This document shows, in pieces, positions 1,134 to 16,302 of a stretch of 64,000 nucleotides of DNA. Below the pieces are notes generated by a model that saw only the letters and a program-made list of their open reading frames with translations, had not been told where the DNA came from and did no database searches. A program made the position numbers and the translations under genes. The first letter of the stretch is position 1. Each line of letters begins with the position of its first letter. The DNA is from Bacteroidota bacterium (GTDB taxonomy: Bacteria > Bacteroidota > Bacteroidia > Bacteroidales > JAGONC01): contig JAKLFC010000010.1 of NCBI GenBank assembly GCA_022711405.1, forward strand, positions 70,349 to 134,348, read 5' to 3'.

Positions 1134-1141
1134 AGAATAAA

Positions 1142-1216
1142 ATCAAAAAGCAAAGAGGAAAGATCAAAAATCAAAAGTTAGTTTTACTTTTTGATTTTTG
1201 CTCTTTGCTCTTTGAT
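1142..1216. repeat. Long imperfect low-complexity inverted repeat (hairpin) between the MbnP-like and peroxidase genes
   Basis: Left arm 1142-1177 (ATCAAAAAGCAAAGAGGAAAGATCAAAAATCAAAAG) is a near-perfect reverse complement of right arm 1187-1216 (CTTTTTGATTTTTGCTCTTTGCTCTTTGAT). The last ~15 codons of ORF 1171..2043 (SKSKEQKSKSKTNF) are encoded by the loop and right arm. Confidence 0.5.
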
Positions 1217-2043
1217 ATTAATACGGTGAACACCCCTTTTTTACCGTTCTCACATCCCACCCGCATGCATTCCTGGCATTGCATGATGTTGAACGGGAAT
1301 GTCGAGAGGTCGATGGTATGGGGACCGGTGAACCATTGTTCAATGTTCATACTGACGGCTACATGTACGGTATCTCCTGTTGTCATCTGAAAAGAGGAGC
1401 CCGGCAATGTCACCCGGAAGTTATTGTGTACAAATCCTGTGATGTCATTTACGTCAATCGTATCGCCGGAATAGATCTGTCCGATCCCCAGGTGAAATTC
1501 GAACGGCCTGTTCTGCGACATCCCGTCATTAAGCCATTTACCATTGAGCTTCATATAGTGATAGCCTCCCCCCAGTACATCCGGCCAGAACATATCCCGC
1601 TCGGGTGGATTCACAAACATCAGGGAAATGTTTTTCTCCTGGCTGATCCCGAACATGAATGAAACGGAGTCATAGGATCCGGCCGGGATCTTATCGAATA
1701 CCTCCCAGGTCATGGTCGAAGGGATATCATTGTCAATATAGTAAATGTCTGTCCAGTCATCGATCAGGAACCCGGAACCACCGGACTGATGCAGAATCAC
1801 ATCGGAAATGAAATACTGCACCTCGGTGATCAGGTAATGATTGCCCGCCGCATTCGTATAGATCATCGTATCGATCTGAAGAGGCTCACCTTCCACCCTG
1901 TGAAAAAATGTAAAGATGATCTTGCCATGATCTTCGGACTCAGGTTCTTCCCCATCGCATGCACACATCATGGTCAAAACCATCCATGCCATCACTACAA
2001 GCATGCTTCTCATACCCATCAAACCTCCTTCCCTCACTATCAT
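1171..2043 (-). CDS. MbnP-like periplasmic (copper-binding family) lipoprotein
   Basis: 290-aa ORF. The likely true start is MRSMLVV (around 2013), giving a signal peptide with a lipobox-like MMCACDG. Size, secreted nature and position immediately upstream of a MauG/MbnH-type di-haem peroxidase and downstream of a TonB receptor match the MbnP/MbnH pairing. The family assignment comes from context and general resemblance, not from an HMM. Confidence 0.6.
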   Translation of the reverse strand: MIVREGGLMGMRSMLVVMAWMVLTMMCACDGEEPESEDHGKIIFTFFHRVEGEPLQIDTMIYTNAAGNHYLITEVQYFISDVILHQSGGSGFLIDDWTDIYYIDNDIPSTMTWEVFDKIPAGSYDSVSFMFGISQEKNISLMFVNPPERDMFWPDVLGGGYHYMKLNGKWLNDGMSQNRPFEFHLGIGQIYSGDTIDVNDITGFVHNNFRVTLPGSSFQMTTGDTVHVAVSMNIEQWFTGPHTIDLSTFPFNIMQCQECMRVGCENGKKGVFTVLISKSKEQKSKSKTNF

Positions 2044-2048
2044 TGTAA

Positions 2049-2126
2049 CTCTCTCCTCTCTCCTTTCTCCTTTCTCCTCTCTCCTCTCTCCTCTCTCCTC
2101 TCTCCTCTCTCCTCTCTCCTCTCCCT
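2049..2126. repeat. 78-nt pure polypyrimidine tract, about 11 tandem CTCTCCT heptamers (polypurine on the coding minus strand)
   Basis: Read directly: only C and T from 2049 to 2126. The tract fills the whole intercistronic gap between the lipoprotein gene stop (2125-2127) and the MbnP-like start. A related tract in opposite orientation lies at 27631-27680. Confidence 0.95.
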
Positions 2127-2499
2127 AATATGGCACCGTCCCCGACACCACCACAAAGTTAGCGGTGTCATACAGGCTTGACGCTTCCCTGAAGATCTTT
2201 CCGTCCACCAGGATCCGTACCCTGATCTTCGAATTCACGTCATAATAGTTTGCTGAAATAAACACGATCTCTCCCGGATCCGTCTCAAAGGCATACTTCC
2301 AGACATCCGTTTCACTATCGGTCACCACTGTTTCCGAAACCAGTTTGCCGTCCGCGTTCCTGTACCGCACATCGAATCCTGAGTCAGAATCAGTTACTAC
2401 ATACGTGACAGCCACTCCTTCGACTGCCTGATCGCATGCAATCAATGAAAAAATCGTCAGAAGAAATATCATCGAAAGCTTTCTCATCGCCCAAATCAT
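2125..2499 (-). CDS. Small hypothetical lipoprotein
   Basis: 124-aa ORF with signal peptide and lipobox (LTIFSLIACDQ). It sits between the TonB receptor and the MbnP-like gene. No recognisable catalytic motif. Confidence 0.55.
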   Translation of the reverse strand: MIWAMRKLSMIFLLTIFSLIACDQAVEGVAVTYVVTDSDSGFDVRYRNADGKLVSETVVTDSETDVWKYAFETDPGEIVFISANYYDVNSKIRVRILVDGKIFREASSLYDTANFVVVSGTVPY

Positions 2500-2511
2500 A
2501 AATACTGAATA

Positions 2512-4899
2512 CTAAATACTGAATATCAAATTAATGTAAAAGTTCCTCCCCGGTTCATAGAAATCCTTCTGGGTCCCGATCAACCGCCTGTTCAGGTGTT
2601 CATAGTAGGTACTGTTGAAAAGGTTTTCCACTCCTCCCGTAATGGTAAAATGGGCGTTGTGGAAATAGGAGCAGGAGATCCCTGCGACAAAGAATCCCGG
2701 TGAGGCTGACTCATAAAATGCCTTTGAAACCTGGTTCTGCCTCGCCACAAAACGGCCCCTGAGCTTTGGGATCAGCTGCCCCTTCAGGAATTTATAGCCA
2801 ACCGTCAGCGTTGATTCAAAAGGAGGGATCTCGGCCAGCGGATCATTTTTAACGACCTCTGTTCCGGTAACCTGACCACTTTCATTGATGATGTTGCGGA
2901 CCGCTTCGTTGATACTGGCATGCGTATAAGAAGCGATGAATTGTACATACCATTGGATCTGTGACGGGGAACCATAGGAAAGCTCAAAACCCCTGAACCG
3001 GGCATAATCTGCATTATAGTACTTTTTTACACCCTTTACCCCGTTGGTGGCTGGTTTTTGCTCTGAAGGAGGGAGTATCTCTCCGGTGATGTAGTTGGTG
3101 ACGATGGAGTAGAATCCATTGATCTCAAGGCTCCCGAAACCGGGATCCTGGAAACGGCCGGTCAGGTCCGCCTGGTTGTTGGCCTCGGGTTTAAGCGAAG
3201 GATTCCCAAGGTAATCGTAATTATCGTACCCAACCGGCAGCAGGGTGATGAACCGTTCGACCATATCGGGGCTTCTTACCCCCCTGCCCAGCATCAGGCT
3301 CAACGAAAGATTATCCATCAGCCAGTAGACAAATCCCGCGCTGGCACTGAGGTTCGTGAAACGGGATTCATTCTCATCGCTGAAATAGATCGTCTTACCC
3401 ATTTTTTCCAAAACGATATCGTCCGAATTGGCATGGTTGAAATCGATGCGTGCCGAAGCGATCAGATCTAAACGGCTGAAAGCCCTGCGATATTCGGCGA
3501 ATAGACCGGCATTGCTTATCACGGCGTTGTTCCATATCTGTTCTGTGTACACTGGCATGGTCGGCTGCATGATGAGGGTTTTGACACGGTCACCGTCCTT
3601 GGTGATGTATTCGAAATCGGCACCGATGGCCAGTATGTTGTTCCCTGATTTGAATCCGCTTTCCAGCCGTCCGCCGGTATTGTAGGCCTGAACGGTCGTC
3701 ACGGCAACCACAGTATCTGAATTGGGGCGTTCCTTGTTGTCCATGGTGTGTTTCACATCGGAACGGTAAACCTTTACCGTCCATGGCAAAAACCTCTCCG
3801 AAGGAGTGTTCCACGAATAATCCAACGACATCAGCCGGGTCCTGTCTTCGCGCATATCCATCGGCAACGCGGGATAATCCACATCCTTTCCGACGGAGTA
3901 GCTGTACGAAAAGAGCAGGTTATGATCCTTTCCCGGCATAATGCCGAACTGACCCCTGATATTGTACTTTTTGTTTTCAGCATCGAACCAGTTCCCATCA
4001 CCGTCCTGGTAATCCCCATTCTGTTTGTTTGTTCCAGAGAGGCCGAAATAAACCAGTCGGTTGCCGCCGTTCAGCACCAGGTGTTCCCGGGTGCCGGAGG
4101 GATTGCTGGTGTATCCAAACAAAGCGGATCCGTCGATGGTAAATCGCTCGTTGACGGGTGGTTTTTGTGTCTGAAGGTTGATGATCCCCCCGAACGAAGG
4201 ACCGTATCGAAAGGCGTAAGGTCCTTTCAGTATTTCAAGGCTCTTAATGTCCTCAATTTCAATATGTGCAATGGCAGGATCCATCCGGTTAGGGCAACCA
4301 CCCTCGATCTTCTGGCCATTGTCGACCTGAACATTCAACTGGCTGTACTTGAATCCCCTGACCACCGGATCCAGTGTGGAGCCCCCTTTCCGGATACCCG
4401 ATACATTGGGTATCCGGCGGATATAGGTACCGATATCGGTGACAGGTGTTTGAATGATCTGTATACTGTTTACTTCTGAATGGAGGTAAGGAAGTTTTAA
4501 GGTTGATGTATCAGTTTGTGAAAATCCCGTGACCTCGATACCTTCCAGTGTTTGCATCTCCGGTGTGAGCAGGATATCGAGACTGAGGATCCCTCCTTCT
4601 GGCAGTGTGACTTTATGCGTATAGGATCTGTAACCCAGGTAACTGACCTCCAGTACACATTTACCGGGACTGATCCCTTCCAGAATGAATCTTCCCGACG
4701 GATCGGTCATGGTACCTCTTTCGTGAGATTTCAGGAATACCGAAGCACCATAGAGTGGATCCTTTGTCTCGCCATCCAGAACATATCCCTGAATAACAGA
4801 TTGCCCATAGCTATGCACAGACAAAGTCACAATGAACAGACAAACGGTGAAGCACCAGTAAATGGTCGGTTTCATATGCAAATGTAACAAGGATTTCAC
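2512..4899 (-). CDS. TonB-dependent outer-membrane receptor
   Basis: 795 aa with a signal peptide, a CarboxypepD_reg-like N-terminal segment (VIQGYVLDGETKDPLYGASVFL), a plug region and a long beta-barrel with a terminal ...NLIFSI. Confidence 0.9.
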   Translation of the reverse strand: MKSLLHLHMKPTIYWCFTVCLFIVTLSVHSYGQSVIQGYVLDGETKDPLYGASVFLKSHERGTMTDPSGRFILEGISPGKCVLEVSYLGYRSYTHKVTLPEGGILSLDILLTPEMQTLEGIEVTGFSQTDTSTLKLPYLHSEVNSIQIIQTPVTDIGTYIRRIPNVSGIRKGGSTLDPVVRGFKYSQLNVQVDNGQKIEGGCPNRMDPAIAHIEIEDIKSLEILKGPYAFRYGPSFGGIINLQTQKPPVNERFTIDGSALFGYTSNPSGTREHLVLNGGNRLVYFGLSGTNKQNGDYQDGDGNWFDAENKKYNIRGQFGIMPGKDHNLLFSYSYSVGKDVDYPALPMDMREDRTRLMSLDYSWNTPSERFLPWTVKVYRSDVKHTMDNKERPNSDTVVAVTTVQAYNTGGRLESGFKSGNNILAIGADFEYITKDGDRVKTLIMQPTMPVYTEQIWNNAVISNAGLFAEYRRAFSRLDLIASARIDFNHANSDDIVLEKMGKTIYFSDENESRFTNLSASAGFVYWLMDNLSLSLMLGRGVRSPDMVERFITLLPVGYDNYDYLGNPSLKPEANNQADLTGRFQDPGFGSLEINGFYSIVTNYITGEILPPSEQKPATNGVKGVKKYYNADYARFRGFELSYGSPSQIQWYVQFIASYTHASINEAVRNIINESGQVTGTEVVKNDPLAEIPPFESTLTVGYKFLKGQLIPKLRGRFVARQNQVSKAFYESASPGFFVAGISCSYFHNAHFTITGGVENLFNSTYYEHLNRRLIGTQKDFYEPGRNFYINLIFSI

Positions 4900-4903
4900 T
4901 GAT

Positions 4904-6094
4904 TTATTGTATCTGAATGGTTCCCAGTCCTTGTTCCAGGTCTTCGATTATGTCTTTCGCATCCTCAATGCCTACCGATAACCTGACCAGGTCGTCGGTG
5001 ATACCCGATGCAATCTTATGTTCGTGACTGACTCCTGCATGGGTCATGGATGCCGGGTGCTGGATAAGCGTTTCCACTCCCCCCAGCGAGACTGCCAGGA
5101 GCGCCAGATGTACGTTGTCCATCAGTTTTCTGCCGGCCTCATATCCTCCTTTCAATCCAAAACTCATCATGGAACCAGGTCCGGTCATCTGCTTCACTGC
5201 CAGTTCATGCTGAGGATGGGATTGGAGTCCCGGGTATTTAATCCAGGCCACTTTAGGATGCGACTGCAGAAAATCAGCGACCATCATGGCATTTTCCTGG
5301 GCACGTTCAATACGTAACGCCAGGGTCTTGACACCACGTAAGACCATGAAGGCCTGGGTGGGATCCATGTTGCATCCCATGTAAACCATCGAATGACGGA
5401 TTTTTTTATATAGTTCAGGTTTCCTGGTAACAATGACTCCGCCGACAATATCAGCATGTCCGTTGATGAATTTCGTGATGGAATGCAGGGTGACATCAGC
5501 ACCCAGATCGAGCGGTTTTTGGAGGAAAGGCGAGCTGAAGGTATTGTCGACCACCAGTACCAAATGATTCTCCCTGGCAATCCTTGCACAGCCTTCGATG
5601 TCCGTGATATCCATAGTGGGATTTGCAGGGGTCTCAATGTATACTACCTTCGTATTAGGTCGAAGTGAATTTCTGATTTCATCCAGGTTCGAAGTGTTCA
5701 CGAACGTCGCCTCGACACCGAAGCGGGAAAAATCCTGTTGCAGCACCCCTCTAACCGGGCCATAGACTGCGCCGGTACTGATGATATGGGTCCCTGCACC
5801 CAGCAATGCCATGAAAACGCTATTTATAGCTCCCATTCCAGAGCTTGTTGCAATGCCGTCGAATCCGTTTTCCAGTTCTGCAATGTTCCGTTCAAAAGCC
5901 CTGATAGTAGGATTGGCGATGCGCGTATAAATATAGCCGTCGCTTTTTCCGGAAAAACAATCCGCTCCATGCTGTGCGCTCTTGAATTTAAATGTGGATG
6001 TCTGGTAAATGGGCACAGTGGCACTGCCATACGCATCCTCAAATGCACCGGCATGAATCAGTTTGGTATTGAATCCTTTGTCGTTTATTTTCAT
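4904..6094 (-). CDS. Cys/Met-metabolism PLP-dependent enzyme (methionine gamma-lyase / cystathionine-lyase-like)
   Basis: 396 aa with YTRIANPT and SITKFINGH (PLP lysine) motifs typical of the gamma-family PLP enzymes. Confidence 0.85.
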   Translation of the reverse strand: MKINDKGFNTKLIHAGAFEDAYGSATVPIYQTSTFKFKSAQHGADCFSGKSDGYIYTRIANPTIRAFERNIAELENGFDGIATSSGMGAINSVFMALLGAGTHIISTGAVYGPVRGVLQQDFSRFGVEATFVNTSNLDEIRNSLRPNTKVVYIETPANPTMDITDIEGCARIARENHLVLVVDNTFSSPFLQKPLDLGADVTLHSITKFINGHADIVGGVIVTRKPELYKKIRHSMVYMGCNMDPTQAFMVLRGVKTLALRIERAQENAMMVADFLQSHPKVAWIKYPGLQSHPQHELAVKQMTGPGSMMSFGLKGGYEAGRKLMDNVHLALLAVSLGGVETLIQHPASMTHAGVSHEHKIASGITDDLVRLSVGIEDAKDIIEDLEQGLGTIQIQ

Positions 6095-6161
6095 TGAAAT
6101 TTTGGTTATATATTAGTTCAATACGATTATTATAGTTCAATAAAAAAGGGATACATCATCA

Positions 6162-7040
6162 TCAGATCAAATTTTTCTCCTTGAGTATGGCAGCCATAAT
6201 TTGGGTGTTATATTCACTTAATCTGGTCATGGGTGGACGTAAGGCTCCATCGATGAGTCCCATGAGCTCCAATGCTTTTTTAGCCCCCATTGGATTGGTT
6301 TCGAACCTGCAGGCTTCAAACAAGGGATAATACTCTGTATGGAGTTCCCTTGCCTTGTCATGGGTTCCATCCAGTGCATGATGGATCATCCGGGCCATGA
6401 CATCAGGTACAATGTTGCCAGCGACTGTAAAGCTGCCAGCTCCCCCAAAAGAGACCAGCGGATAAGCAGTGGTATCCTTGCCCGTAAATACCAAAAAATC
6501 GTCATTTCGGGTCAGAAATACAATCTTGGCCAAATGATCGAGCATCTTATTCCCATCTTTTGTTCCCACAATATTCGGATGTTTGGCCAGCTGTGCTGTC
6601 ATTTCCGGCGTTAATTCCACACCTGTTCGATTTTTGGAATTATGTAAAATTATGGGAATGGGGGAAGCATCTGCCAGCTGCTCAAAATACTGAATGAGAG
6701 CTGAGGCCGTGGGTAGAATAAGGTATGGGGAATAGGCAACTGCATAATCCGCACCTGTATCCGCATACATTTTTGCCCGATCGATCGATTCACGTGTTCC
6801 AGCAAGGCAGATATCCGGCATGACCGGTATTTTGCCATTGACTTCCTCCACTACAATTTTCAGAAGCCTTTGGACCTCATCATTAGTCATCAGCGAATTT
6901 TCCCCAGTGACTCCTAAGGGAGCAATCCCGTCAATATCCGAATCAACCTGTCGCCTGACAAGCTGGCGAAGATTATTTTCGTCGAGAGAATAATCGCTTT
7001 TAAAGGGAGTAACCAGTAATGTAAAAGCACCTTTTTTCAT
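6162..7040 (-). CDS. Dihydrodipicolinate synthase (DapA) family class I aldolase
   Basis: 292 aa with TPF...GVTGE N-terminal signatures and a GTKDGN Schiff-base lysine region. Confidence 0.8.
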   Translation of the reverse strand: MKKGAFTLLVTPFKSDYSLDENNLRQLVRRQVDSDIDGIAPLGVTGENSLMTNDEVQRLLKIVVEEVNGKIPVMPDICLAGTRESIDRAKMYADTGADYAVAYSPYLILPTASALIQYFEQLADASPIPIILHNSKNRTGVELTPEMTAQLAKHPNIVGTKDGNKMLDHLAKIVFLTRNDDFLVFTGKDTTAYPLVSFGGAGSFTVAGNIVPDVMARMIHHALDGTHDKARELHTEYYPLFEACRFETNPMGAKKALELMGLIDGALRPPMTRLSEYNTQIMAAILKEKNLI

Positions 7041-7079
7041 TTCATTATTAATTTGTTGGTATATATAATGCTGAATTTT

Positions 7080-7388
7080 TTATTCCATCATTGTATTTAC
7101 TGTATCCAGGTTTTGAGTCTTGTTATCATCCGGAGATGTAAACCAGTAAATAGCATTATGGGGGCATGATGACACGCAAAGTCCGCACGAATCGCATTGA
7201 TCATAGACAATAACATAGTGCACAGGATTACAGGGGACTTGCATGGTAAGGCAATAGCCGATGCATTTCGCACATGCATTGGTTGTTACTTTTTGTATGG
7301 CGGTGGTTGGACACACCGTTATGCACAGATCACATCTTTTACACTTTGATGAATCGATCACAGGGACTGTGAATGAATTCGTTTCCAT
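7080..7388 (-). CDS. 4Fe-4S dicluster ferredoxin-domain protein
   Basis: 102 aa with CKRCDLCITVCP and CDSCGLCVSSCP motifs. It overlaps the upstream ATPase gene by 31 nt. Confidence 0.8.
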   Translation of the reverse strand: METNSFTVPVIDSSKCKRCDLCITVCPTTAIQKVTTNACAKCIGYCLTMQVPCNPVHYVIVYDQCDSCGLCVSSCPHNAIYWFTSPDDNKTQNLDTVNTMME

Positions 7389-8227
7389 ATATTTCTGATC
7401 TCTTTGCTAGTTTGGGATTCGGGGGCCCACTCGGTCATGCTTTTACAGCTCACCATGGATTCCACTACAATGGGATCGAAAGGGAGTTCCCCTGCAATAG
7501 CCACATTTCTGCTTTTACAAAATATATTTATTCTGTCTCGTAAATCCGGATTGATGTCATTTTTATTGATTACGACCCAGACCTTCAGGGCAAATTTTTC
7601 TGTGATCCCCAGGGTGCGCTCCAGGTCATGAAGTGCTGAAAGGGTTGGTTCGGTGACAATCACGACCGAATCGACTCCGGTCACTGTTGAAATAACCGGG
7701 CAACCAATTCCCGGTGGCCCATCAAGCAGTATGGTTTCGATTGAATTCTCCCTGGCCACTTGTTTTGCCCGGTCGCGTAACTCATTTACCATTTTACCCG
7801 AGTTTTCCTCCCCTGCGGCCAGTCGTCCGTAAACCATGATGCCATTCCGGAAGGAGCCGGTATACATGCGGCTTTTATCGTTTTTGACCATCGAAATAGC
7901 TTCCGCGGGGCATATACGGGAACATAAAAAGCAACCGTCGCAGAAGGTTTCTGAGATTTCTACCCTCCCATCCGTGATTGAAATGGCATCGAAACGGCAG
8001 TATGTCAGACACAGGCCACAATGGGTGCACTGGGTATAGTCAATGATAGCTTTTTGACTGCCCACATATTCAAGTTCCTCATCATGCGAAGGGTTGAAAA
8101 GGATATAGAGGTTGGCGGCATCCACGTCACAATCCACCAGGACCACTTTTTGACTGAGGGTGGCAAACGCTGCAGTCAGACTTGATTTTCCTGTTCCTCC
8201 CTTACCGCTGATAACAGCTACTTGCAT
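7358..8227 (-). CDS. MinD/ParA-superfamily P-loop ATPase with inserted ferredoxin domain
   Basis: 289 aa with a deviant Walker A (GKGGTGKS) followed by two Cys-rich 4Fe-4S-like motifs (CTHCGLCLTYC, CDGCFLCSRICP). Confidence 0.85.
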   Translation of the reverse strand: MQVAVISGKGGTGKSSLTAAFATLSQKVVLVDCDVDAANLYILFNPSHDEELEYVGSQKAIIDYTQCTHCGLCLTYCRFDAISITDGRVEISETFCDGCFLCSRICPAEAISMVKNDKSRMYTGSFRNGIMVYGRLAAGEENSGKMVNELRDRAKQVARENSIETILLDGPPGIGCPVISTVTGVDSVVIVTEPTLSALHDLERTLGITEKFALKVWVVINKNDINPDLRDRINIFCKSRNVAIAGELPFDPIVVESMVSCKSMTEWAPESQTSKEIRNIWKRIHSQSL

Positions 8228-9092
8228 GATATGCTTTTATGGTATTCATCATGGCAAGCAACTGTTCCTGCCAGCTGATTGTTTTTTGAGCTATTAGTAT
8301 CCCTGAAGAATAGAGCGATGCAATCATTCTGTCGTATGGAATTTCAAGCAACAGGTCGATGTTTTCATCCCGGAGATAATTGTATACATCAAGATTTCCA
8401 ATTCCTGAGCGATTTATAATAACGCCGAAGGTTTTGTTCATTATCCGCAGGGTTTCTACCGATTGTTTCAGGTCGCTCAGGCCAAAAGGCGTAGGTTCAG
8501 TGACCAGGATGACGTAGTCGGCTGAAACAACCGTTTGAATGAATGGGCATGAAGTACCAGGAGGTGCATCCATGATCGTGATCTGATCTGTTCTGCCTTC
8601 TTTCAGGGCGGCCTTTATTACCGGGACCGGGGAAAAGATGCCAATTCCTGTACGTCCTTCAACAAGACGTGCCAGGGGATTGATCCTGTAGCTGTTCACG
8701 TTGCCAAGTAAAACGTCTTTTTCAGTAATAGCACCCTCCTTGCAGGCGATCAGGCATGCCCCGCAGCCATGACAGAGATCCTCCATGACCTGAATGATCT
8801 TAACAGGAGGTAGGATAAAAATGGCATTGTAGCTACAATACTCATGGCACTTTCCACAAAAGGTGCACCTGTCCACATCAATGAAAGGCACCTTCTGGGT
8901 GACAGGTATGGTTTTATTCAATTCTCCATTGAAGAAGATTTTTGCATTGGGCTCTTCTGCATCACAGTCAATCAGTGTTGTAGAATTTCCGTTGGTATAA
9001 AGGGAATAGAACAGGTTGGTTGCAATCAGTGTTTTACCTGTTCCACCCTTACCGCTGGCAATAGCAATTTTTATTTCTTCCGGATCAATCAT
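8202..9092 (-). CDS. MinD/ParA-superfamily P-loop ATPase with inserted ferredoxin domain (paralogue)
   Basis: 296 aa with GKGGTGKT, CTFCGKCHEYC and CHGCGACLIAC motifs. Both its ends overlap neighbouring genes. Confidence 0.85.
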   Translation of the reverse strand: MIDPEEIKIAIASGKGGTGKTLIATNLFYSLYTNGNSTTLIDCDAEEPNAKIFFNGELNKTIPVTQKVPFIDVDRCTFCGKCHEYCSYNAIFILPPVKIIQVMEDLCHGCGACLIACKEGAITEKDVLLGNVNSYRINPLARLVEGRTGIGIFSPVPVIKAALKEGRTDQITIMDAPPGTSCPFIQTVVSADYVILVTEPTPFGLSDLKQSVETLRIMNKTFGVIINRSGIGNLDVYNYLRDENIDLLLEIPYDRMIASLYSSGILIAQKTISWQEQLLAMMNTIKAYHASSCYQR

Positions 9093-9528
9093 AGTTCAGC
9101 CGCATCTGCTCTTCAGTCAGTGTTTCTTTAATGGCATTTTCCCAGAAAGGAGTGTCCCAGGAGTGAAGAGTGCTGTGTGTTACCAGGTACTTCTGAGGAA
9201 TAGGATGGGTACCGAAGATCACTTCCAGTCCAAACTTTTCCTTTATGAATTTCTCAAAATATTCCATATACGGGCAGGGAGGATATCCTACCAGAAATCC
9301 TGTGGCGAAATGAACATGCGTTACCCCATTCTTCTTCATTTCAATAAATGCTTGCTCAATATTTCCTCCCGGACAACCTCCACAGGTGGTATACCCGGCA
9401 AGTTCTGCCTCCTTGTCATTATAAACCGAGAAAGCTCCCTCCCGGTTCCGGAATGCCCTGAAGCACTTTCCTCCGGCACACATTCGGTAGCGATCACAGA
9501 TGATGATCCCGATTTTGATTTTTCCCAT
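9085..9528 (-). CDS. CGGC-domain protein
   Basis: 147 aa with CDRYRMCAGGKC and TTCGGCPG motifs characteristic of CGGC-domain proteins. Confidence 0.7.
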   Translation of the reverse strand: MGKIKIGIIICDRYRMCAGGKCFRAFRNREGAFSVYNDKEAELAGYTTCGGCPGGNIEQAFIEMKKNGVTHVHFATGFLVGYPPCPYMEYFEKFIKEKFGLEVIFGTHPIPQKYLVTHSTLHSWDTPFWENAIKETLTEEQMRLNYD

Positions 9529-9542
9529 GGTGTTTCTTCAGT

Positions 9543-9917
9543 TTAATGTCCGCATTTACCATGTTCGTGAGGATGATCATGGTCGCAATAATTGGCACTT
9601 AGGCTCAATTTATTGGCAAGAAAATCATTGACAAGATCCACAGCTGGTTTTATGGGCGCACCCACGAAAGCATTGATCTGATGTTGATTGAAAAGCATGA
9701 TCGCCTGTTGCCCCATGCCTCCGGCGATGACATCAGTAACACCGAACTGAGCAATCCAGCGTGGATACAAACCCGGTATATGTTCCGGGGGTGTGACCTC
9801 CCTAACCTCGGTAATTTTGTTATTTTCAACATTTACGATGGCAAATGCCTGGCAGTGCCCGAAATGGGGGCATAATACCCCGTTTTCCAATGGAATGGCT
9901 ATTCTTTTGTTCAACAT
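9543..9917 (-). CDS. NifB/NifX-family (dinitrogenase FeMo-cofactor-binding-like) protein
   Basis: 124 aa with a HFGHC start region and a GMG...L motif, plus a His/Cys-rich tail (CDHDHPHEHGKCGH). Confidence 0.75.
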   Translation of the reverse strand: MLNKRIAIPLENGVLCPHFGHCQAFAIVNVENNKITEVREVTPPEHIPGLYPRWIAQFGVTDVIAGGMGQQAIMLFNQHQINAFVGAPIKPAVDLVNDFLANKLSLSANYCDHDHPHEHGKCGH

Positions 9918-9931
9918 AATTTCATCATGTG

Positions 9932-10165
9932 TTAATTTCCTCCCCTGAAGCGATTTTGTCTTCCCATACCACTTCCCTTTCCTACTCTGCCGCGACCCCG
10001 TCCCAAACCTTTTCCGGCAGGGTTTTCAGGAAGATTTTCATCCTTGTTTTCATCATCGGATGACACTGACTTTTTCCGGCCCTTACCATAATTGGTACAA
10101 CGGCCCATTTTACGGCCTGACATGGGACCCTGCCCTTCGGGACCTGTACGATCAAAACCTGGCAT
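9932..10165 (-). CDS. DUF5320-type small Gly/Arg-rich protein
   Basis: 77 aa. The N-terminus MPGFDRTGPEGQGPMSGRKMGRC matches the DUF5320 signature as I recall it. The tail is low-complexity and basic. Confidence 0.65.
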   Translation of the reverse strand: MPGFDRTGPEGQGPMSGRKMGRCTNYGKGRKKSVSSDDENKDENLPENPAGKGLGRGRGRVGKGSGMGRQNRFRGGN

Positions 10166-10178
10166 AAGTACCTCCTTT

Positions 10179-10496
10179 TTAATGATTTAACATTTCTATG
10201 ATTTCATGGATTGTTTTATTCGGATTTTTTACAACAATCATTTGTATATTCAGGCTATCCAGCAATGGTTTGATTTTCATTCCAAATTCGCCCGAAATGA
10301 TCTTGCTTATATTACGGGAAGCAACCAATTGAACGGACGCCGGTCCTGCTCCTTCCTCCACTTCCCTGTTGGGATTGGGAATATACTCCATGGCCCTGCT
10401 CTCCGTATCGTATACAACAAAGTAGGCACAACGGCCGAACCGTTGATCAATCAGTGATTCAAGGGAATTCCCCTGGGATGTGATGGCAATTTTCAT
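10179..10496 (-). CDS. NifB/NifX-family cluster-binding-like protein (paralogue)
   Basis: 105 aa with MKIAITS...RFGRCAYFVVYD, typical of the NifX-like family. Confidence 0.75.
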   Translation of the reverse strand: MKIAITSQGNSLESLIDQRFGRCAYFVVYDTESRAMEYIPNPNREVEEGAGPASVQLVASRNISKIISGEFGMKIKPLLDSLNIQMIVVKNPNKTIHEIIEMLNH

Positions 10497-10516
10497 CTTG
10501 ATTAGGTATTTAATGG

Positions 10517-10975
10517 TTACATTTCGATGTTCTTTTGCGTATCATTCCAATTAAAACCTTCAACCTGCCGGCTGCCGCACAGGGGACAACGTTCCACTTT
10601 TATCATTCGTTCTGGATTATTGAAATGACACAGGCACTGCTTGCACTGATACCAGTCGCTGTCGAAATATACTTTTCCACCCTCGATGGTGATCTGTCGT
10701 CCTTCGACAAAAGCCCTGGCAATTTTTTCACGTGCCGATGCATAGATCCGTGTATAGGTCGGGCGTGAAATACCCATGACGATGGATGCATGATGATGAT
10801 TATACCCATCATAGTCACATAGTCGTAACGCTTCGTATTCCTCATATAACAGGTAAACTGGCTCAACTTTCTGGTTTTTCAAATCGGAACCGTATGGCTT
10901 GAAACCCTTGATTAGTGGAGGATTTACCACCTTTCTAATTCTTTTTAGCCGTGGTGTCATCGTTATAATGAGCAA
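10517..10975 (-). CDS. DUF134 (UPF0251) putative DNA-binding protein with C-terminal Cys motifs
   Basis: 152 aa. The likely start is MTPRLKRIRKV. It has a ...FKPYG signature, an HTH-like centre, and C-terminal CKQCLC...CPLCG motifs. Confidence 0.75.
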   Translation of the reverse strand: MLIITMTPRLKRIRKVVNPPLIKGFKPYGSDLKNQKVEPVYLLYEEYEALRLCDYDGYNHHHASIVMGISRPTYTRIYASAREKIARAFVEGRQITIEGGKVYFDSDWYQCKQCLCHFNNPERMIKVERCPLCGSRQVEGFNWNDTQKNIEM

Positions 10976-11172
10976 TAGTTCGATACAAAAATAATAAACA
11001 TTTGTTCATTATAATTAATTTTGCATCATAAAATTTTATTTATTTACATAAAGATTGCCGGGATTGAATACTAATAGGAGTACAGGTATTTGAGTTGATA
11101 AAACAAGCTTATGGAAAAAGTTAAGTAATTTTATCCCCTGAAAGATCATAAACACAAAACTGGTTCTATTCT

Positions 11173-11784
11173 GTGGATGAATCTTCCTCTCAAGAGCAAA
11201 CTACGATCCTTCGCCTGAAGAATATGACGTGCAGTTGCTGTGTCCGTATCGTCAGGCAAGAACTGGAAAAGATTGGGGTAAAGGTGAATTCGGTCAGCCT
11301 CGGCGAGGCCGATATCACCTACGATATTTCTGATCCGGGATTTGATATGATACGGAAGGTACTGGCGGAAAACGGATTTGAGCTTGCCCAGAACAGGGAA
11401 GAAGCCATTGTAGAACAAATCAAAATTGCAGTGATCGAGTTGATCCACCTGTCGAACAACAGCAACTCCATCATCCGGAACTCGGATTACCTGGTGGATA
11501 AGATCCAGCTTTCGTATCAGTACCTTTCCAATCTGTTTTCCCAGCACGAAAAAATGACGCTGGAGAAGTTCATCATCCTGCATAAGATTGAAAAGGTGAA
11601 GGAGCTGATTTCCTATGATGAGCTTACCTTAAGTGAAATTGCTTTCCAGATGGGTTACAGCAGCGTGCAGTACCTTTCGACGCAGTTCAGGAGCGTTACG
11701 GGCTTGTCGGTCACGGAATATAAAAAGGATCCGGTAAAGAACCGGATCCCGCTGGATGATCTGCTGACAAAGGATGAAGAGTAA
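11173..11784 (+). CDS. AraC-family transcription regulator with N-terminal heavy-metal-associated (HMA) domain
   Basis: 203 aa. LRLKNMTCSCCVRIVRQELEKIG is an HMA-type metal-binding loop. The C-terminus (LSEIAFQMGYSSVQYLSTQFRSVTGLSVTEY) is an AraC HTH. Confidence 0.8.
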   Translation: MDESSSQEQTTILRLKNMTCSCCVRIVRQELEKIGVKVNSVSLGEADITYDISDPGFDMIRKVLAENGFELAQNREEAIVEQIKIAVIELIHLSNNSNSIIRNSDYLVDKIQLSYQYLSNLFSQHEKMTLEKFIILHKIEKVKELISYDELTLSEIAFQMGYSSVQYLSTQFRSVTGLSVTEYKKDPVKNRIPLDDLLTKDEE

Positions 11785-11793
11785 CTCGGGTTT

Positions 11794-12576
11794 TTACAGC
11801 GTGGACAGGCACCCGCATCCTCCAAAGCCGGATTCATGTTCTGAGTTGATGATCTCGTCGAAATATTCCTGGCTGATGTACTGAGGAGTATAATCGGCAC
11901 CGCGGAAGACCAGGTTTCTGTAAAACGCACGCAGGTGATTCCTTGAGCCACGCTCCAGGTTTTCAAACACCCAGGTAATGTCCTGGTTGTCCACCACGTT
12001 TTGAAGTAAATTCTGCAAATCAAAAATGTCCATATCCTCTATGGTGGCACCTGCTGTCAGCCCGTCGATAAGGGAATTATCTGCAAGATCAGTGAGTTCA
12101 TTGTACGCTGTCTGTAACTCCTGGTTGATGAACACACCGGGTTGATGATTTTCACCGGGATCCGTCAATTCGTACTTGTCAAGGAGATATTTGACCATGG
12201 TGGTATGCTGCGTTTCACTCTTTGAGATATTATTGAAGATGGGAATCGGATAGAGTGCATATGCAAACACATATACATCCTTTGCCAGCAATTCCTCTTC
12301 ACGCATATGAAGCAATGCCTCTACTTCTTCTGCACTTAACTCCTCGAAGGGAAATGTATCAATACAATTCATTACAGATCCCATCGGGCTCTGTTCAAAA
12401 TTCCCTGTCAGGAGTATGGTTTCCTTTAATTCAGAACTCACAGCATCAGGTGTGCCCACATCAGGTGTCTTACTGCAACCCGGGATCGCCAGGCTTACGA
12501 TGATCAATGCCGGCATTACAAGAATGGAAAAAATTTTTTTCGTTTTCATGACATTTTTTTTAAAGTGATTATTCAA
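11794..12576 (-). CDS. Ferritin-like (DUF2202-type) lipoprotein with Cys-rich C-terminus
   Basis: 260 aa with a lipobox (AIPGCSK) and a duplicated ferritin-like helix pattern (EEELLAKDVY...; ...LERGSRNHLRAF). The tail is GFGGCGCLSTL. Confidence 0.65.
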   Translation of the reverse strand: MNNHFKKNVMKTKKIFSILVMPALIIVSLAIPGCSKTPDVGTPDAVSSELKETILLTGNFEQSPMGSVMNCIDTFPFEELSAEEVEALLHMREEELLAKDVYVFAYALYPIPIFNNISKSETQHTTMVKYLLDKYELTDPGENHQPGVFINQELQTAYNELTDLADNSLIDGLTAGATIEDMDIFDLQNLLQNVVDNQDITWVFENLERGSRNHLRAFYRNLVFRGADYTPQYISQEYFDEIINSEHESGFGGCGCLSTL

Positions 12577-12772
12577 AATTTAACCGTACAAAATTGGCTC
12601 GTGAATTTTAAGGAGTTGTTACAGAATCTATGAAAAGTATTATGACATTTCTGTCCGTTAAAACTGTTATAAGTGGCAGAATTCCAAAATATTAAAATAC
12701 TATAACATAATTATAGGATTATATACACCGGGCTTAGCTAACCCATCGTTATTTTGTAGAAAAAATGAATCA

Positions 12773-13564
12773 ATGAAAAAATTCATTATCATTTTATGGG
12801 CATCCCTGCTTGTTCATCAGGGTGTCTCTCAGGTAAACCTGGAAACGATATATCAGGTTTCAGGAGCGTTGACACAGCTCGAAAAATCAGGGTTCAAATA
12901 CTATGTGATGGATTGGACCAACGTTCAGTGCCGTTTATACAATATGGATCATTCGCTATGGAAGGCGGTCACTCTCACCGTTCCCACCGGCTATTACCTG
13001 TACGATATCCGTTATGTCTCGGAACATCTTTTCAATACGGATGATCTGGTGGAAATGGCCGTTACTTATTTCTATTATGAAGAAGCAGGCCAATACTATA
13101 TCTACGGCAGCAAGATCGTCAATGAACTGGGAGAAGAACTGGTGGTCATCCCAGGAGCTTCTTATTTTCAGGTATATGATGCCGGTGACTATGGCCGGAA
13201 GTTTCTTGCCTATGTCTACGATTATTCGGTTTATCCATATCCGGTTCAGACATGGGTGTACGACCTGCCTGGAGGAGAAAATTCAAACAGCGTCATGAAT
13301 CCGCCAGCTTCCATGGGATTGCCGGCTCCCTATCCTAATCCGGCCAGCTCATTCGTCGTGATAAACGTTGAATTGCCAGACAATCCGACCAATGCTGAAA
13401 TTCAGGTCATGGACCTTCAGGGAAGGATGATTAAAAGCTATCCCATCACCGTTGGGAGTAAAACCTATCAGCTGAATATCAGTATGTATCCAAAAGGCGT
13501 ATATTTGTACCGGATCGTTGCAAATCATTATTGTTCTGAAAGTTTCAAACTGATCAGACAATAA
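12773..13564 (+). CDS. Secreted protein with T9SS C-terminal sorting domain
   Basis: 263 aa with a signal peptide. The C-terminus YPNPASSFVVINV...GVYLYRIV fits the type A Por/T9SS sorting domain. Confidence 0.7.
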   Translation: MKKFIIILWASLLVHQGVSQVNLETIYQVSGALTQLEKSGFKYYVMDWTNVQCRLYNMDHSLWKAVTLTVPTGYYLYDIRYVSEHLFNTDDLVEMAVTYFYYEEAGQYYIYGSKIVNELGEELVVIPGASYFQVYDAGDYGRKFLAYVYDYSVYPYPVQTWVYDLPGGENSNSVMNPPASMGLPAPYPNPASSFVVINVELPDNPTNAEIQVMDLQGRMIKSYPITVGSKTYQLNISMYPKGVYLYRIVANHYCSESFKLIRQ

Positions 13565-13610
13565 TGGGGAAAGCGTTGCAGAAGCCAAACCACATCAATT
13601 CAACAGGAAT

Positions 13611-13859
13611 ATGAAATTAAAGGAAAACATCGCCATCAGTGATTCAGGATACCTCTTCAATCCTTCCACAGGTGAGTCTTTCGTTCTCAATCCCCTGGGT
13701 ATGGAAGTTTTACAGTTCGTGAAAAAGGGAAAATCCTTCGAAGAAATATCAAAGGAGGTCCTGACCCGGTACAGTGTGGATTCCATTACCTTCGAGAAAG
13801 ACTACCAGGATTTCATACACCAGCTCAGGCAGTATCTGTTAATCGGCAGCGATGAATAA
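13611..13859 (+). CDS. PqqD-family small protein (RRE-like peptide/adaptor-binding fold)
   Basis: 82 aa. The pattern ...GYLFNPSTGESFVLNPLGMEVLQFVKKGKSFEEISKEVLTRY... is the typical PqqD-like layout (beta-strands followed by a winged-helix). The stop overlaps the ATP-grasp start. Confidence 0.65.
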   Translation: MKLKENIAISDSGYLFNPSTGESFVLNPLGMEVLQFVKKGKSFEEISKEVLTRYSVDSITFEKDYQDFIHQLRQYLLIGSDE

Positions 13860-14898
13860 GAAAAGGGTAACGGTGGGCATCTCAGGGCTGAACGCCATCG
13901 ACAGCCCCGGGCCCGGGATGGCGGTAGCCATGGGCCTTCACGAAGCCAGATCATTGGATGTAAGGATCATTGGCCTTGCGTATGAATCGCTGGAGCCGAT
14001 GATCTACATGCACGACCTGGTCGACAGGACCTACCAGCTGCCGTATCCATCCTCCGGAAGCGATATGATCCTCTCAAGGCTTGAATACATTCAGGAGATG
14101 GAACACATCGATGTGATCATCCCCAATTTTGATGCGGAACTGTATTCTTTCATGAAGATCGAGCCCCAGCTGAAGAGAATGGGCATCCGCATGTTCCTGC
14201 CTGCTATGGAACAGTACGAGGAGCGGCATAAAGTGAATCTGTCCAAATTCGGTGAAAAATATGATATTCTTGTGCCCCATGGCAAGGCGGTCTTTGAACC
14301 CAAAGAGGTGTTCGATATCAAATCGGAGTTTACCTTTCCGCTGCTGGTAAAGGGTAAATGGTACGATGCCTATATTGCCTACAACATAGAGCAGGTGCTG
14401 ACCTGTTTCAATAAGATCAGTGCCAAATGGGGCCTGCCCGTGATCCTTCAGAAATTCGTACATGGCTCTGAGTACAATGTAACGGGACTTGGTGACGGCG
14501 CCGGTACCACGGTGGCTGCCGTGGCCATGCGCAAGCAATACATCACGGATAAGGGAAAAGCGTGGGCGGGGATCTCCATCGACGATACGTACCTTCTTGA
14601 ACTCACCCGCAAGTTTGTTACTGCAACGAAATGGCGCGGTGCCTTTGAACTGGAGATGATCAAGACCCAGGATAATAAATATTACCTGCTGGAGATCAAT
14701 CCTCGTATACCGGCATGGACATACCTTGCCGTGGGAGTCGGGCAAAACATCCCGGAAGCCCTGGTGAGGCTCGCCCTGGGGTTGAAAGTCCAGCCTTACG
14801 AATCCTATGATGTGGGAAAACTCTTCATCCGGTACTCCAAAGACATGATCGTCGACCGGGAGGAGTTTGAAAAACTCTCGATGACCGGTGAATTGTGA
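13852..14898 (+). CDS. ATP-grasp carboxylate-amine ligase
   Basis: 348 aa with the LLVKGK, ILQKFV.G.EY and ELEMI...YLLEINPR motif order of ATP-grasp enzymes. Confidence 0.8.
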   Translation: MNKKRVTVGISGLNAIDSPGPGMAVAMGLHEARSLDVRIIGLAYESLEPMIYMHDLVDRTYQLPYPSSGSDMILSRLEYIQEMEHIDVIIPNFDAELYSFMKIEPQLKRMGIRMFLPAMEQYEERHKVNLSKFGEKYDILVPHGKAVFEPKEVFDIKSEFTFPLLVKGKWYDAYIAYNIEQVLTCFNKISAKWGLPVILQKFVHGSEYNVTGLGDGAGTTVAAVAMRKQYITDKGKAWAGISIDDTYLLELTRKFVTATKWRGAFELEMIKTQDNKYYLLEINPRIPAWTYLAVGVGQNIPEALVRLALGLKVQPYESYDVGKLFIRYSKDMIVDREEFEKLSMTGEL

Positions 14899-14955
14899 TC
14901 CCACTCAACGTAACTTCAGAAAACAAAAGATAACTATACTGATAAAACTTTCAGC

Positions 14956-16302
14956 ATGGAAAAACAACGATATGAACGACCGATCCTGAAAAAACTGGAA
15001 ATGGGCATGCCCGGTAAATTCGGCGTAGCTGCCAACCTGCCTCCCACTACCCATATTGACGGGATCTCCGTAGACTCGCTGGTGGAAACCTACGGCTCAC
15101 CCGTGTTCATCCTGTCCGAGAAAACCATTCGTTCGGTTTTCAAAAGAGCAAAAAAAGCATTTACAACCCGCTATCCCAAGGTCCAGTTTGCATGGTCCTA
15201 TAAGACCAATTACCTGAATGCAGTGTGCAGGATCTATCATCAGGAGGGTTCCTGGGCTGAGGTCGTTTCAGGATTTGAATACGATAAAGCGATCGCCAAT
15301 GGAGTACAGGGACAGCACATCATTTTCAACGGCCCGGATAAATCGGCGATATACCTGGAAAAGGCCATCCGTAACGATTCCATCCTTCATATTGACCACC
15401 TGGATGAACTGTACACGATCATTGAGCTTACCGAAAAACTGGCGAAAAAGCCGAAAGTGGCCATCCGGGTGAACATGGATACTGGCATACAACCCATGTG
15501 GGACCGCTTTGGATTCAATTATGAAAACGGCCAGGCCTGGGACGCCCTCAACAAGATCATGCATTCAGGAAAACTGGATCTGGTGGGGCTTCACACCCAT
15601 ATCGGGACGTTCATCATGAGCCCGCAGGCCTATGGAGTCGCTGCCCAGAAACTTGCCGATCTTGCCATCGGGATCCGGCAGAAGTACAACCATACGATCA
15701 AATACATCGACATGGGAGGCGGCTTTGCTTCAGCCAATACCCTCAAGGGATTCTATTATCCGGGCAGCGACACCAATCCCACGTTTGATGACTATGCGGA
15801 GGCCATCACATCGGCATTGCTGAACACACAGTTCACACCGGATAATCTTCCCCTGCTGATCCTGGAGACCGGCAGGGCCCTTATCGATGAGGCCGGCTAT
15901 CTTCTTGGAACCGTCATCGCCAATAAAAGACTCTCTACCGGTAAACGGACCACGATTGTCGACATTGGCATCAACCTCCTTTTCACTTCTTTCTGGTACG
16001 AACATAAACTCACCCCCGCACGGCATTATTCACAGTACACGGAAGCAACTACGGTATATGGTCCCCTGTGCATGAATATCGACGTTATCAGGGAAAATGT
16101 CAACCTGCCGTTGCTGAACAAAGGCGACCATTTTGTCATCCATCACGTGGGGGCATACAATATGACCCAGTGGATGCAGTTTATCACCCTGCGGCCCAAG
16201 ATCGTCCTGATCGATCAGGACGGTACTGCCCACGTGATCCGCGAAAATGAAACCATGGACAATGTGATGAACATGGAACACCTTCCCGCCCATCTGAAAT
16301 GA
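14956..16302 (+). CDS. PLP-dependent decarboxylase, Orn/DAP/Arg decarboxylase (alanine-racemase fold) family
   Basis: 448 aa with FAWSYKTN (PLP lysine), HTHIGT, MGGGF and a C-terminal beta-barrel with GAYN. Confidence 0.85.
   Translation: MEKQRYERPILKKLEMGMPGKFGVAANLPPTTHIDGISVDSLVETYGSPVFILSEKTIRSVFKRAKKAFTTRYPKVQFAWSYKTNYLNAVCRIYHQEGSWAEVVSGFEYDKAIANGVQGQHIIFNGPDKSAIYLEKAIRNDSILHIDHLDELYTIIELTEKLAKKPKVAIRVNMDTGIQPMWDRFGFNYENGQAWDALNKIMHSGKLDLVGLHTHIGTFIMSPQAYGVAAQKLADLAIGIRQKYNHTIKYIDMGGGFASANTLKGFYYPGSDTNPTFDDYAEAITSALLNTQFTPDNLPLLILETGRALIDEAGYLLGTVIANKRLSTGKRTTIVDIGINLLFTSFWYEHKLTPARHYSQYTEATTVYGPLCMNIDVIRENVNLPLLNKGDHFVIHHVGAYNMTQWMQFITLRPKIVLIDQDGTAHVIRENETMDNVMNMEHLPAHLK

Follow-up and report, generated by a model that had tools for sequence, protein, structure and literature searches.

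Genes of the locus and their orange-protein counterparts

Eight adjacent genes at positions 7,080 to 10,975 of a 64,000-nucleotide stretch of the Bacteroidales contig JAKLFC010000010.1 are the subject of this analysis, and the whole stretch is called the window below. They encode two small NifX-like proteins, two MinD-class ATPases with inserted ferredoxin domains and a set of accessory proteins, and they share their core with the orange protein (ORP) system of Desulfovibrio. From the first gene to the last, the listing of open reading frames (ORFs) gives:

10517-10975, minus strand: DUF134 (UPF0251) helix-turn-helix protein (Pfam PF02001, 1.4e-21) with a C-terminal CxxCxC...CxxC ribbon; predicted autoregulator
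10179-10496, minus strand: Xa, a NifX-like carrier of the ORP/IssA/MTH1175/TM1290 type with an RFGRC motif (PDB 2wfb, 5.4e-11)
9932-10165, minus strand: DUF5320, a Gly/Arg-rich cationic protein (Pfam PF17253, 5e-9; pI 10.7)
9543-9917, minus strand: Xb, a NifX-like protein of the TM1816/MrpORP C-terminal-domain type (NCBIfam MrpORP; CPHFGHC, CDH and a His-rich tail)
9085-9528, minus strand: CGGC-domain protein (Pfam PF08821, 3.5e-29)
8202-9092, minus strand: ATPase 1, a MinD-class P-loop protein with an inserted 2x[4Fe-4S] ferredoxin domain (Pfam CbiA/ParA)
7358-8227, minus strand: ATPase 2, a paralogous MinD-ferredoxin ATPase (Pfam CbiA/ParA)
7080-7388, minus strand: small 2x[4Fe-4S] dicluster ferredoxin with an extra Cys-rich insert (Pfam Fer4, 5.7e-14)

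Gaps of 20, 13, 14 and 14 nt separate the first five genes, and from the fifth gene onwards neighbours overlap by 8, 26 and 31 nt, in agreement with an earlier note on this DNA that had described eight consecutive minus-strand genes with gaps of 13-20 nt or with overlaps, which amount to 8-31 nt. An identical locus was found on five metagenome contigs and in one NCBI metagenome-assembled genome labelled Bacteroidales, where independent gene calls agree, and the eight genes are a real operon. All domain calls of that note (DUF134, two Nitro_FeMo-Co domains, DUF5320, CGGC, two ATPases and a ferredoxin) were borne out by Pfam, the Nitro_FeMo-Co matches of the two NifX-like proteins being 4.7e-14 and 3e-16, and the His/Cys tail noticed on the second NifX-like protein is present (NYCDHDHPHEHGKCGH). 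Its statement that nitrogenase genes are missing holds as far as NifH and gene context are concerned: homologues of NifH, Mrp, IscU and Fur were not found elsewhere in the 64-kb window, and no nif genes were seen beside the 83 loci described below, NifD and NifK not having been searched. No riboswitch, including the Moco riboswitch, was detected by Rfam at 1-16000.

An ORP sequence fragment used as query led to a Desulfonatronovibrio locus (L007), with the order PAS-sigma54 activator (OrpR-like), ORP, ATPase, ATPase and second NifX; a Desulfobacterota metagenome locus (L008) has the same core. In reciprocal BLASTP against both, ATPase 1 pairs with the first ORP-locus ATPase (35-37% identity, 1e-52 to 1e-62) and ATPase 2 with the second (41% identity, 1e-78 to 1e-80), while Xa matches the ORP orthologue of L007 at 34% identity (1e-16) and Xb its second NifX protein at 36% (3e-16). 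Because this pairing is clean, the core can be equated with the ORP system: the two NifX-like proteins and the two ferredoxin-insert ATPases are orthologues of the proteins of the Desulfovibrio ORP core, whose gene order they share. Further likenesses are the two adjacent paralogous MinD-type ATPases (Orp3/Orp4 in Desulfovibrio) with two [4Fe-4S] motifs each, an ORP-type NifX-fold protein (Orp8), a second NifX-fold domain with CxHFGHC and CDH motifs, and confinement to anaerobes.

The window locus differs from the Desulfovibrio cluster in several respects. The C-terminal (Di-Nase) domain of MrpORP is free-standing here, with both motifs kept, and no Mrp lies in the window, a separate Mrp gene adjoining the cluster in loci related to it. 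A DUF134 repressor-type regulator stands in place of OrpR and a sigma54 promoter; a pattern search, itself at chance level, gave no sigma54-type match in 10976-11172, and no enhancer-binding protein lies next to the window cluster. The window also has no Orp5-type Cys-rich protein, adds DUF5320, CGGC and ferredoxin genes together with a lyase and a TonB/MbnP/MbnH extension, and holds its genes in one operon, whereas Desulfovibrio has two divergent operons. The earlier description of the module as functionally unassigned was thus overstated, the core being the named and biochemically studied Orp3/Orp4/Orp8/Orp9 system, although it was right that the physiological function is unresolved (PMC8359166). 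The Orp3/4/5/8/9 proteins of D. vulgaris assemble into a complex, MrpORP passes Fe-S clusters to Orp3/Orp4, which themselves contain Fe-S, and ORP expression is on at low redox potential only; the authors call the role of the system "still unclear" (PMC6345978, PMC8359166). We give a probability of roughly 0.55 to the reading that the locus is the Bacteroidales version of an ORP/IssA-type metal-sulfur cluster handling system spread across anaerobic bacteria and archaea. The core is a new member of an already known and named system, and the accessories (DUF134, free DUF5320, CGGC, ferredoxin, lyase and TonB/MbnPH) depart from those of Desulfovibrio. For DUF134, DUF5320, COG1149 and COG1342, nothing relevant was found in the searchable full texts, the founding ORP paper being outside their reach.

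The CGGC protein occupies the same position before the ATPases as Orp5, and its candidacy as an Orp5 homologue was rejected, as Dde_3197 is described as similar to NifX-family proteins; the likely Orp5 counterpart in L007 is a NifX-like protein with a CxCPxCG...CPxCG tail. The motif CxCPxCG-x4-H-x2-G-x-PC-x4-CPxCG ends this NifX-like protein upstream of ORP (L007 7266-7904), and it also ends the long Bacteroidales DUF134 proteins (L009, L014, L015, L017, L023, L024). The Cys-rich [2Fe-2S] module reported for Dde_3197/Orp5 may correspond to this motif.

Recurrence, fusions and cluster carriers across phyla

One genome per GTDB species was scanned with an alignment of both ATPase paralogues, and the best 80 of at least 520 confirmed loci, together with the two Desulfobacterota loci (L007, L008) and the window, make up 83 non-redundant loci, which were annotated with family hidden Markov models built iteratively from the window proteins. 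As many of these loci are cut by contig ends, the family counts are lower bounds:

MinD-ferredoxin ATPase genes: 82 of 83 loci, with at least two genes in 77
Xa-type NifX: 66 of 83 loci, 16 of them Gly/Arg-tailed or triple fusions
Xb-type NifX: 61 of 83 loci
DUF5320: 49 of 83 loci
DUF134: 42 of 83 loci, as first gene of the cluster
Mrp/NBP35: 28 of 83 loci, plus 9 other P-loop proteins
Small ferredoxin: 15 of 83 loci
CGGC: 6 of 83 loci in the main run, 14 of 83 in the locus

The recurring order is DUF134 > Xa > DUF5320 > Xb > (CGGC or ARMT1/DUF89 or IscU) > ATPase 1 > ATPase 2 > (Mrp). It is near-fixed in Bacteroidota and recognisable in Ignavibacteria, Zixibacteria, Dehalococcoidia, Clostridia, Planctomycetota and Omnitrophota, as well as in the archaeal Bathyarchaeia, Thorarchaeota, Methanosarcinales and Methanocellales; archaeal loci account for 18 of the 83. 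The earlier suggestion that the gene set recurs in anaerobes is therefore upheld by this synteny check, across many bacterial and archaeal phyla. Little is known of the ways in which strict anaerobes of sulfidic environments assemble, keep and distribute their Fe-S clusters, and the ORP system, whose role has been an open question ever since the orange protein was discovered, occurs in hundreds of anaerobic lineages, bacterial as well as archaeal.

Among 1.84 billion representatives at 50% identity, searched exhaustively, 636 proteins matched ATPase 2 at E<=1e-30, and the best of these are proteins of about 600 aa that match twice, as ATPase1-ATPase2 fusions. In one of these (P0241), the N-terminal half best matches ATPase 1 and the C-terminal half ATPase 2. 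From these natural fusions we infer that the two ATPases very probably work together as a single heterodimer. All six ATPase sequences that were aligned share the deviant Walker A motif SGKGGTGK with its signature Lys, the eight Cys of the insert and one further Cys in switch II (DGPPGIGC), all invariant. In line with the kinship to Mrp/NBP35 and CooC/NifH drawn in the earlier note, both window ATPases belong to the MinD/Mrp/NifH (SIMIBI) class; the match to the archaeal MinD 1hyq (1.5e-10) covers the P-loop only.

Two members of this class invite closer comparison. In NifH, two conserved Cys per subunit (Cys97 and Cys132) bridge one [4Fe-4S] cluster at the dimer interface. The window module resembles the pairing of NifH with NifX/NafY in that a SIMIBI ATPase with Fe-S clusters and an invariant switch-II Cys accompanies small Nitro_FeMo-Co-fold carriers, but its ATPase clusters sit in an inserted ferredoxin domain, with one conserved Cys outside the insert, and the window has no nifH and no NifDK/NifEN-like partner (nifD and nifK not having been searched). 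The equation of the switch-II Cys with NifH Cys132 was dropped to a positional analogy, since hhalign of the ATPase profile with A. vinelandii NifH aligned only the P-loop and a weak C-terminal stretch, with nothing significant beyond the P-loop. Proteins of the Mrp/NBP35 family have a C-terminal CxxC for a bridging cluster and a PPGTGD switch II. Likenesses to Mrp/NBP35/ApbC lie in the common P-loop class, in the Mrp gene that adjoins the cluster in at least 28 of the 83 loci and in the fusion of Mrp to an Xb domain in Desulfovibrio; by contrast, the window ATPases lack a CxxC outside the ferredoxin insert and read PPG(I/T/V)(G/S)C in place of PPGTGD, and by these motifs they are not Mrp proteins.

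The two carriers fall into different branches of the NifX fold. Xa matches the D. gigas orange protein structure (PDB 2wfb, 5.4e-11) as well as 1rdu (TM1290) and 1eo1 (MTH1175, 1.7e-8). Xb matches the C-terminal domain of the NCBIfam MrpORP model (positions 265-365, 108 bits) and PDB 1t3v/1o13, and a motif survey located its CPHFGHC, C-terminal CDH and His-rich tail; CxHFGHC and CDH are the proposed Fe-S ligands of MrpORP (PMC6345978). The earlier expectation that these NifX-like proteins bind something other than a nitrogenase cofactor agrees with their relatives, which hold Mo-Cu (ORP), thioferrate (IssA) and Fe-S (the MrpORP C-terminal domain).

DUF5320 has a pI of 10.7, with a tail of pI 12, and a conserved N-terminal motif, MPxxDxTGPxGxGPxxGR..C. 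Xa-DUF5320 fusions, in which Xa is followed by a Gly/Arg/Met-rich segment and the DUF5320 coiled coil, occur in at least eight phyla, their carriers including Armatimonadota, Methanosarcinales, Paludibacteraceae, Dehalococcoidia, Aminicenantes and Nitrososphaeria, and in Desulfobacterales Xa-DUF5320-Xb form one chain, confirmed by Pfam, in the order of the window genes from 10496 to 9543. In IssA, the iron-sulfur storage protein of Pyrococcus furiosus, a NifX domain carries a cationic Gly-rich tail that is proposed to wrap anionic thioferrate; IssA can rebuild the [4Fe-4S] cluster of ferredoxin, and MTH1175 falls in its clade (PMC5524996). Because the natural NifX-DUF5320(-NifX) fusions share this architecture, DUF5320 looks like a detached IssA-type cationic tail. 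The two have in common a NifX (IPR003731) domain of the MTH1175 clade and a cationic, Gly-rich disordered segment suited to an anionic metal-sulfide polymer, whereas the window Xa (105 aa) has no tail, the cationic segment being the next gene; moreover, IssA is not known to work with ATPases.

Six Cys and three His are invariant in the CGGC protein, whose gene is translationally coupled to that of ATPase 1 through the 8-nt overlap. It is 70-89% identical across Bacteroidales (homologues P0391-P0510), compared with about 60% for the neighbouring ATPases. An AlphaFold2 model (pLDDT 86.8) has a flavodoxin-like fold, and Foldseek of this model against PDB returned generic flavodoxin-like folds only, with nothing at E<=1e-3 and no functional clue.

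Promoter, operator and downstream genes

Upstream of the DUF134 gene, palindromes surround a Bacteroidetes -7 box:

10969-11008, minus strand: promoter/operator region
10995-11008, minus strand: operator site 1, TGAACAAATGTTTA
10986-10993, minus strand: Bacteroidetes -7 box, TATTTTTG
10969-10982, minus strand: operator site 2, CGAACTATTGCTCA

Since the -7 box and one operator copy overlap 10969-10993, the DUF134 gene most likely starts at ATG 10960 (147 aa) and not at TTG 10975. A sigma70 promoter scan, unsuited to Bacteroidetes, performed at chance level and was set aside; the -7 box TAnnTTTG was recognised on visual inspection, and a pattern search then located it as well.

When the upstream regions of 23 Bacteroidota DUF134 genes were aligned, a 14-bp palindrome was seen to end one base before the -7 box, as TGAAC-N4-GTTCA in 13 of the 23 and as TGAGA-N4-TCTCA in 6, and a second copy often begins 11 bp after the start of the box. 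The palindrome thus keeps a fixed register to the -7 box, and at no more than one mismatch it is present in 20 of the 23 promoters; after shuffling, 1.6% of promoters have such a site, and so do 3.7% of 300-nt windows drawn at random from these loci. The type of half-site tracks a single residue of the predicted recognition helix, which reads SRPTF-T-RIY in group A (13 of 14 proteins) and SRxTF-A-RIY in group B (all six). In loci of Clostridia, Zixibacteria, Ignavibacteria, Dehalococcoidia and Planctomycetota, too, DUF134 is preceded at a distance of 32-40 bp by perfect palindromes of like shape. Position and co-variation together suggest that DUF134 autorepresses its own operon through these palindromes. 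Most bacterial DUF134 proteins (28 of 48) end in a C-terminal CxxC...CxxC ribbon, and some have Gly/Arg tails.

Across the whole window, seven sites match the operator palindrome at no more than one mismatch, with 2.3 expected; a perfect copy, TGAACCATTGTTCA, lies inside the MbnP coding sequence at 1329-1342 and is probably due to chance. An AraC-type regulator gene (11173-11784, plus strand) diverges from the operon and encodes an N-terminal MTCxxC HMA-like domain (Pfam HMA, 19.5 bits, below the cut-off). Beyond it lies a DUF2202 lipoprotein gene (11794-12576, minus strand), and a bidirectional terminator-like hairpin is found at 11726-11750. Both genes are conserved in the closest relative only.

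After the ferredoxin gene, the same strand continues with:

6162-7040, minus strand: DapA (DHDPS family; TIGR00674, 228.8 bits, above cut-off)
4904-6094, minus strand: Cys/Met-metabolism pyridoxal-phosphate enzyme, methionine-gamma-lyase (MGL)-like (Pfam, 5.5e-149; below the NCBIfam MGL cut-offs)
2512-4899, minus strand: TonB-dependent receptor
2125-2499, minus strand: small 124-aa protein
1171-2043, minus strand: MbnP
1-1133, minus strand: MbnH, cut by the window edge

The gaps on this strand are 39 nt for DapA, 67 nt for the MGL-like gene and 4-28 nt for the TonB receptor, none of them holding a Bacteroidetes -7 box, and from 10960 to 2512 the only terminator-like sites on the minus strand are two weak five-pair stems, both inside coding sequence. 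One long transcription unit from 10960 to the TonB receptor is plausible. Three relatives (L089, L090, L091), whose ATPase 1 is 82, 78 and 73% identical to that of the window, carry the extension, and two of the three differ in their upstream flanks. Their order on the same strand is (ferredoxin), (DapA), MGL-like, (AhpC), TonB receptor, small protein, MbnP, MbnH; DapA is present in L090 and L091 and absent from L089, and in two of the three an IscU gene is inserted between DUF5320 and Xb. The MGL-like gene follows the cluster in all three and also lies near L026. In a more distant Bacteroidales locus (L010 1-8300), an operon of DUF134, NifX, NifX, TonB receptor, MbnP, ferritin and TPR genes diverges from the core cluster, and the shared intergenic region holds two perfect operators. 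About 7 kb from this divergent operon, L010 has a weak MFS_MOT1 (molybdate transporter) fragment and a DsrE-like gene.

The continuation into DapA, MGL-like and copper-uptake genes claimed in the earlier note is thus real on the same strand; however, it is confined to a close clade (four lineages and the rearranged L010), with DapA missing in one. The MGL-like enzyme is a possible source of sulfide or thiol. Copper specificity of the MbnP block is suggested by family membership only: proteins of the MbnP family bind copper and are matured by MbnH, and genes for MbnPH, TonB receptors and AhpC are found together in operons under copper regulation (PMC11951088, PMC9426467). The window MbnP gave no significant match to solved structures and is too divergent for its WxW/kynurenine copper site to be checked. 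As a di-haem peroxidase, MbnH needs peroxide to mature MbnP. MbnH, together with AhpC in a relative (L090 14290-15003), is odd in Bacteroidales from anaerobic digesters.

The metal species handled and the role of the module

The remaining ORFs up to 6 kb from the 83 clusters were grouped by family, and the following recur:

Radical SAM (about 315 aa): 20 of 83 loci
MBL-fold protein: 19 of 83 loci
Pyridine-nucleotide-disulfide oxidoreductase (about 456 aa): 16 of 83 loci
ARMT1/DUF89: 16 of 83 loci
NifU_N/IscU: 16 of 83 loci
Sigma54 activators: 10 of 83 loci
Fur: 7 of 83 loci
FeoB: 6 of 83 loci

Transporter families for Mo/W or Cu were not recurrent within this distance. Because IscU, Fur, FeoB and Mrp do recur as neighbours, and because orp genes in O. 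alaskensis vary together with feoA and flavodoxin (PMC10533852), iron-sulfur handling is favoured over Mo/Cu as the general function. To the pyridine-nucleotide-disulfide oxidoreductase family belong the sulfur/CoA-disulfide reductases, which in Pyrococcus respond to sulfur, as IssA does, a possible link to sulfide supply.

On the ORP/IssA-type reading, ATPase 1 and ATPase 2 would form a NifH-like heterodimer, in which ATP hydrolysis is coupled to electron transfer through four [4Fe-4S] clusters and the extra ferredoxin, and which would load or unload the inorganic metal sulfide on small NifX-fold client carriers. Xa and the cationic DUF5320 would hold this anionic species, most likely iron-sulfide or thioferrate-like, non-covalently, as ORP and IssA are reported to bind anionic clusters. 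Xb, of the Cys/His type, may hold a ligated Fe-S cluster and hand it to Mrp/NBP35-type carriers or target proteins, and CGGC may be a further Cys/His metal-binding accessory. DUF134 would act as the operon's own repressor on the TGAAC-N4-GTTCA palindromes flanking the -7 box, with its Cys ribbon as the probable sensor of metal or Fe-S status. In this clade, the operon would also supply a sulfide- or thiol-releasing lyase and a TonB/MbnP/MbnH metal-import block. A bolder proposal, tentative and well short of an even chance, is that ATP and electrons drive the module to store inorganic iron sulfide and to mobilise it reductively: a split IssA (NifX-fold protein plus DUF5320) would hold a thioferrate-like polymer, from which Fe-S proteins would be supplied with no need of a cysteine desulfurase. 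If this is true, the module would represent a third, sulfide-direct route of Fe-S biogenesis common to anaerobic bacteria and archaea, under a previously uncharacterised family of regulators, DUF134.

Several points weigh against the ORP/IssA-type reading with iron sulfide as its cargo. The species bound at the locus is taken from homologues, and the only cluster actually found in native ORP is Mo-Cu and not Fe-S (cited in PMC6345978). The phenotype reported in Desulfovibrio is morphological, concerning cell division (PMC6345978, PMC8359166), and the clade-specific TonB/MbnP/MbnH neighbours point to copper rather than iron. The window contains no desulfurase gene, in addition to its lack of Mrp and IscU. 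The switch-II Cys corresponds to the NifH cluster ligand by position and not by alignment, and DUF134 is linked to its palindromes by position and co-variation, in promoters that are phylogenetically related.

The first alternative, unlikely in our view but a serious rival on account of the native ORP cluster and the neighbours in this clade, is that Mo (or W) and Cu are handled as thiometallates, the ORP-type carrier binding a [S2MoS2CuS2MoS2]-like cluster that the ATPases and ferredoxins build or dismantle, with copper arriving in this clade through the TonB/MbnP/MbnH block and sulfide from its own lyase. Native D. gigas ORP carries a Mo-Cu cluster (cited in PMC6345978), and Xa matches this protein at 5e-11. 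The MGL-TonB receptor-MbnP-MbnH block follows the cluster in four related lineages, the window included, the DUF134-NifX-NifX-TonB receptor-MbnP operon of L010 uses the shared operator region, and both the copper-operon associations of MbnPH, TonB receptors and AhpC (PMC11951088, PMC9426467) and the MTCxxC HMA-like domain of the divergent AraC regulator would fit a copper link. However, it is IscU, Fur, FeoB and Mrp that recur beside the 83 loci, and not Mo/W or Cu transporters, the MbnP linkage is limited to one Bacteroidales clade, and the L010 block ends in ferritin. The window MbnP is, moreover, too distant from solved MbnP for the copper-site check, and the HMA match lies below the Pfam threshold.

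It is less probable still that the complex serves to mature one particular enzyme or cofactor, such as a cofactor made by a radical SAM protein, and is not a general store or carrier. NifH, CooC and HypB are precedents for SIMIBI ATPases as specific maturases, and radical SAM (20 loci), MBL-fold (19), ARMT1/DUF89 (16) and pyridine-nucleotide-disulfide oxidoreductase (16) genes lie beside the cluster; yet no single candidate target enzyme is kept beside it across phyla, and none of these accessory genes occurs in the window. A role of the MinD-like ATPases in cell division or spatial positioning, with the metal clusters as redox sensors, would accord with their MinD/ParA-class deviant Walker A motif, with the morphological defects after OrpR loss in D. 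vulgaris, with the polar location of MrpORP and with the MinD-like C-terminal amphipathic helices reported for Orp3/Orp4 (PMC6345978, PMC8359166), but it is very improbable, as the conserved partners are cluster carriers, Mrp, IscU and Fur, with no MinC/MinE or divisome family among the recurrent neighbours of the 83 loci (MinC/MinE were not searched for explicitly), the ORP authors themselves call the role unclear, and the system is widespread in archaea of diverse cell biology.

Returning to the ORP/IssA-type reading, the locus yields no new kind of system and would not in itself surprise a specialist; its value lies in testable leads. The handles gained are the predicted operator with its DUF134 regulator, the fusions that bear on the ATPase pair, the fusions that bear on DUF5320 as an IssA-like tail, and a clade in which the system appears to be wired to metal import and to a sulfide-releasing lyase.

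Two further features lie away from the cluster. On the plus strand, a PqqD-like gene (13611-13859), an ATP-grasp gene (13852-14898) and an Orn/DAP decarboxylase gene (14956-16302) are followed by a gene for a 735-aa UT and peptidase M23 protein; the set looks like a small peptide-modification cluster and also lies beside the relative L089. At the MbnP/MbnH junction, a stretch with strong hairpin-forming potential (1137-1239) gave only noise-level Rfam matches, to unrelated miRNA models.

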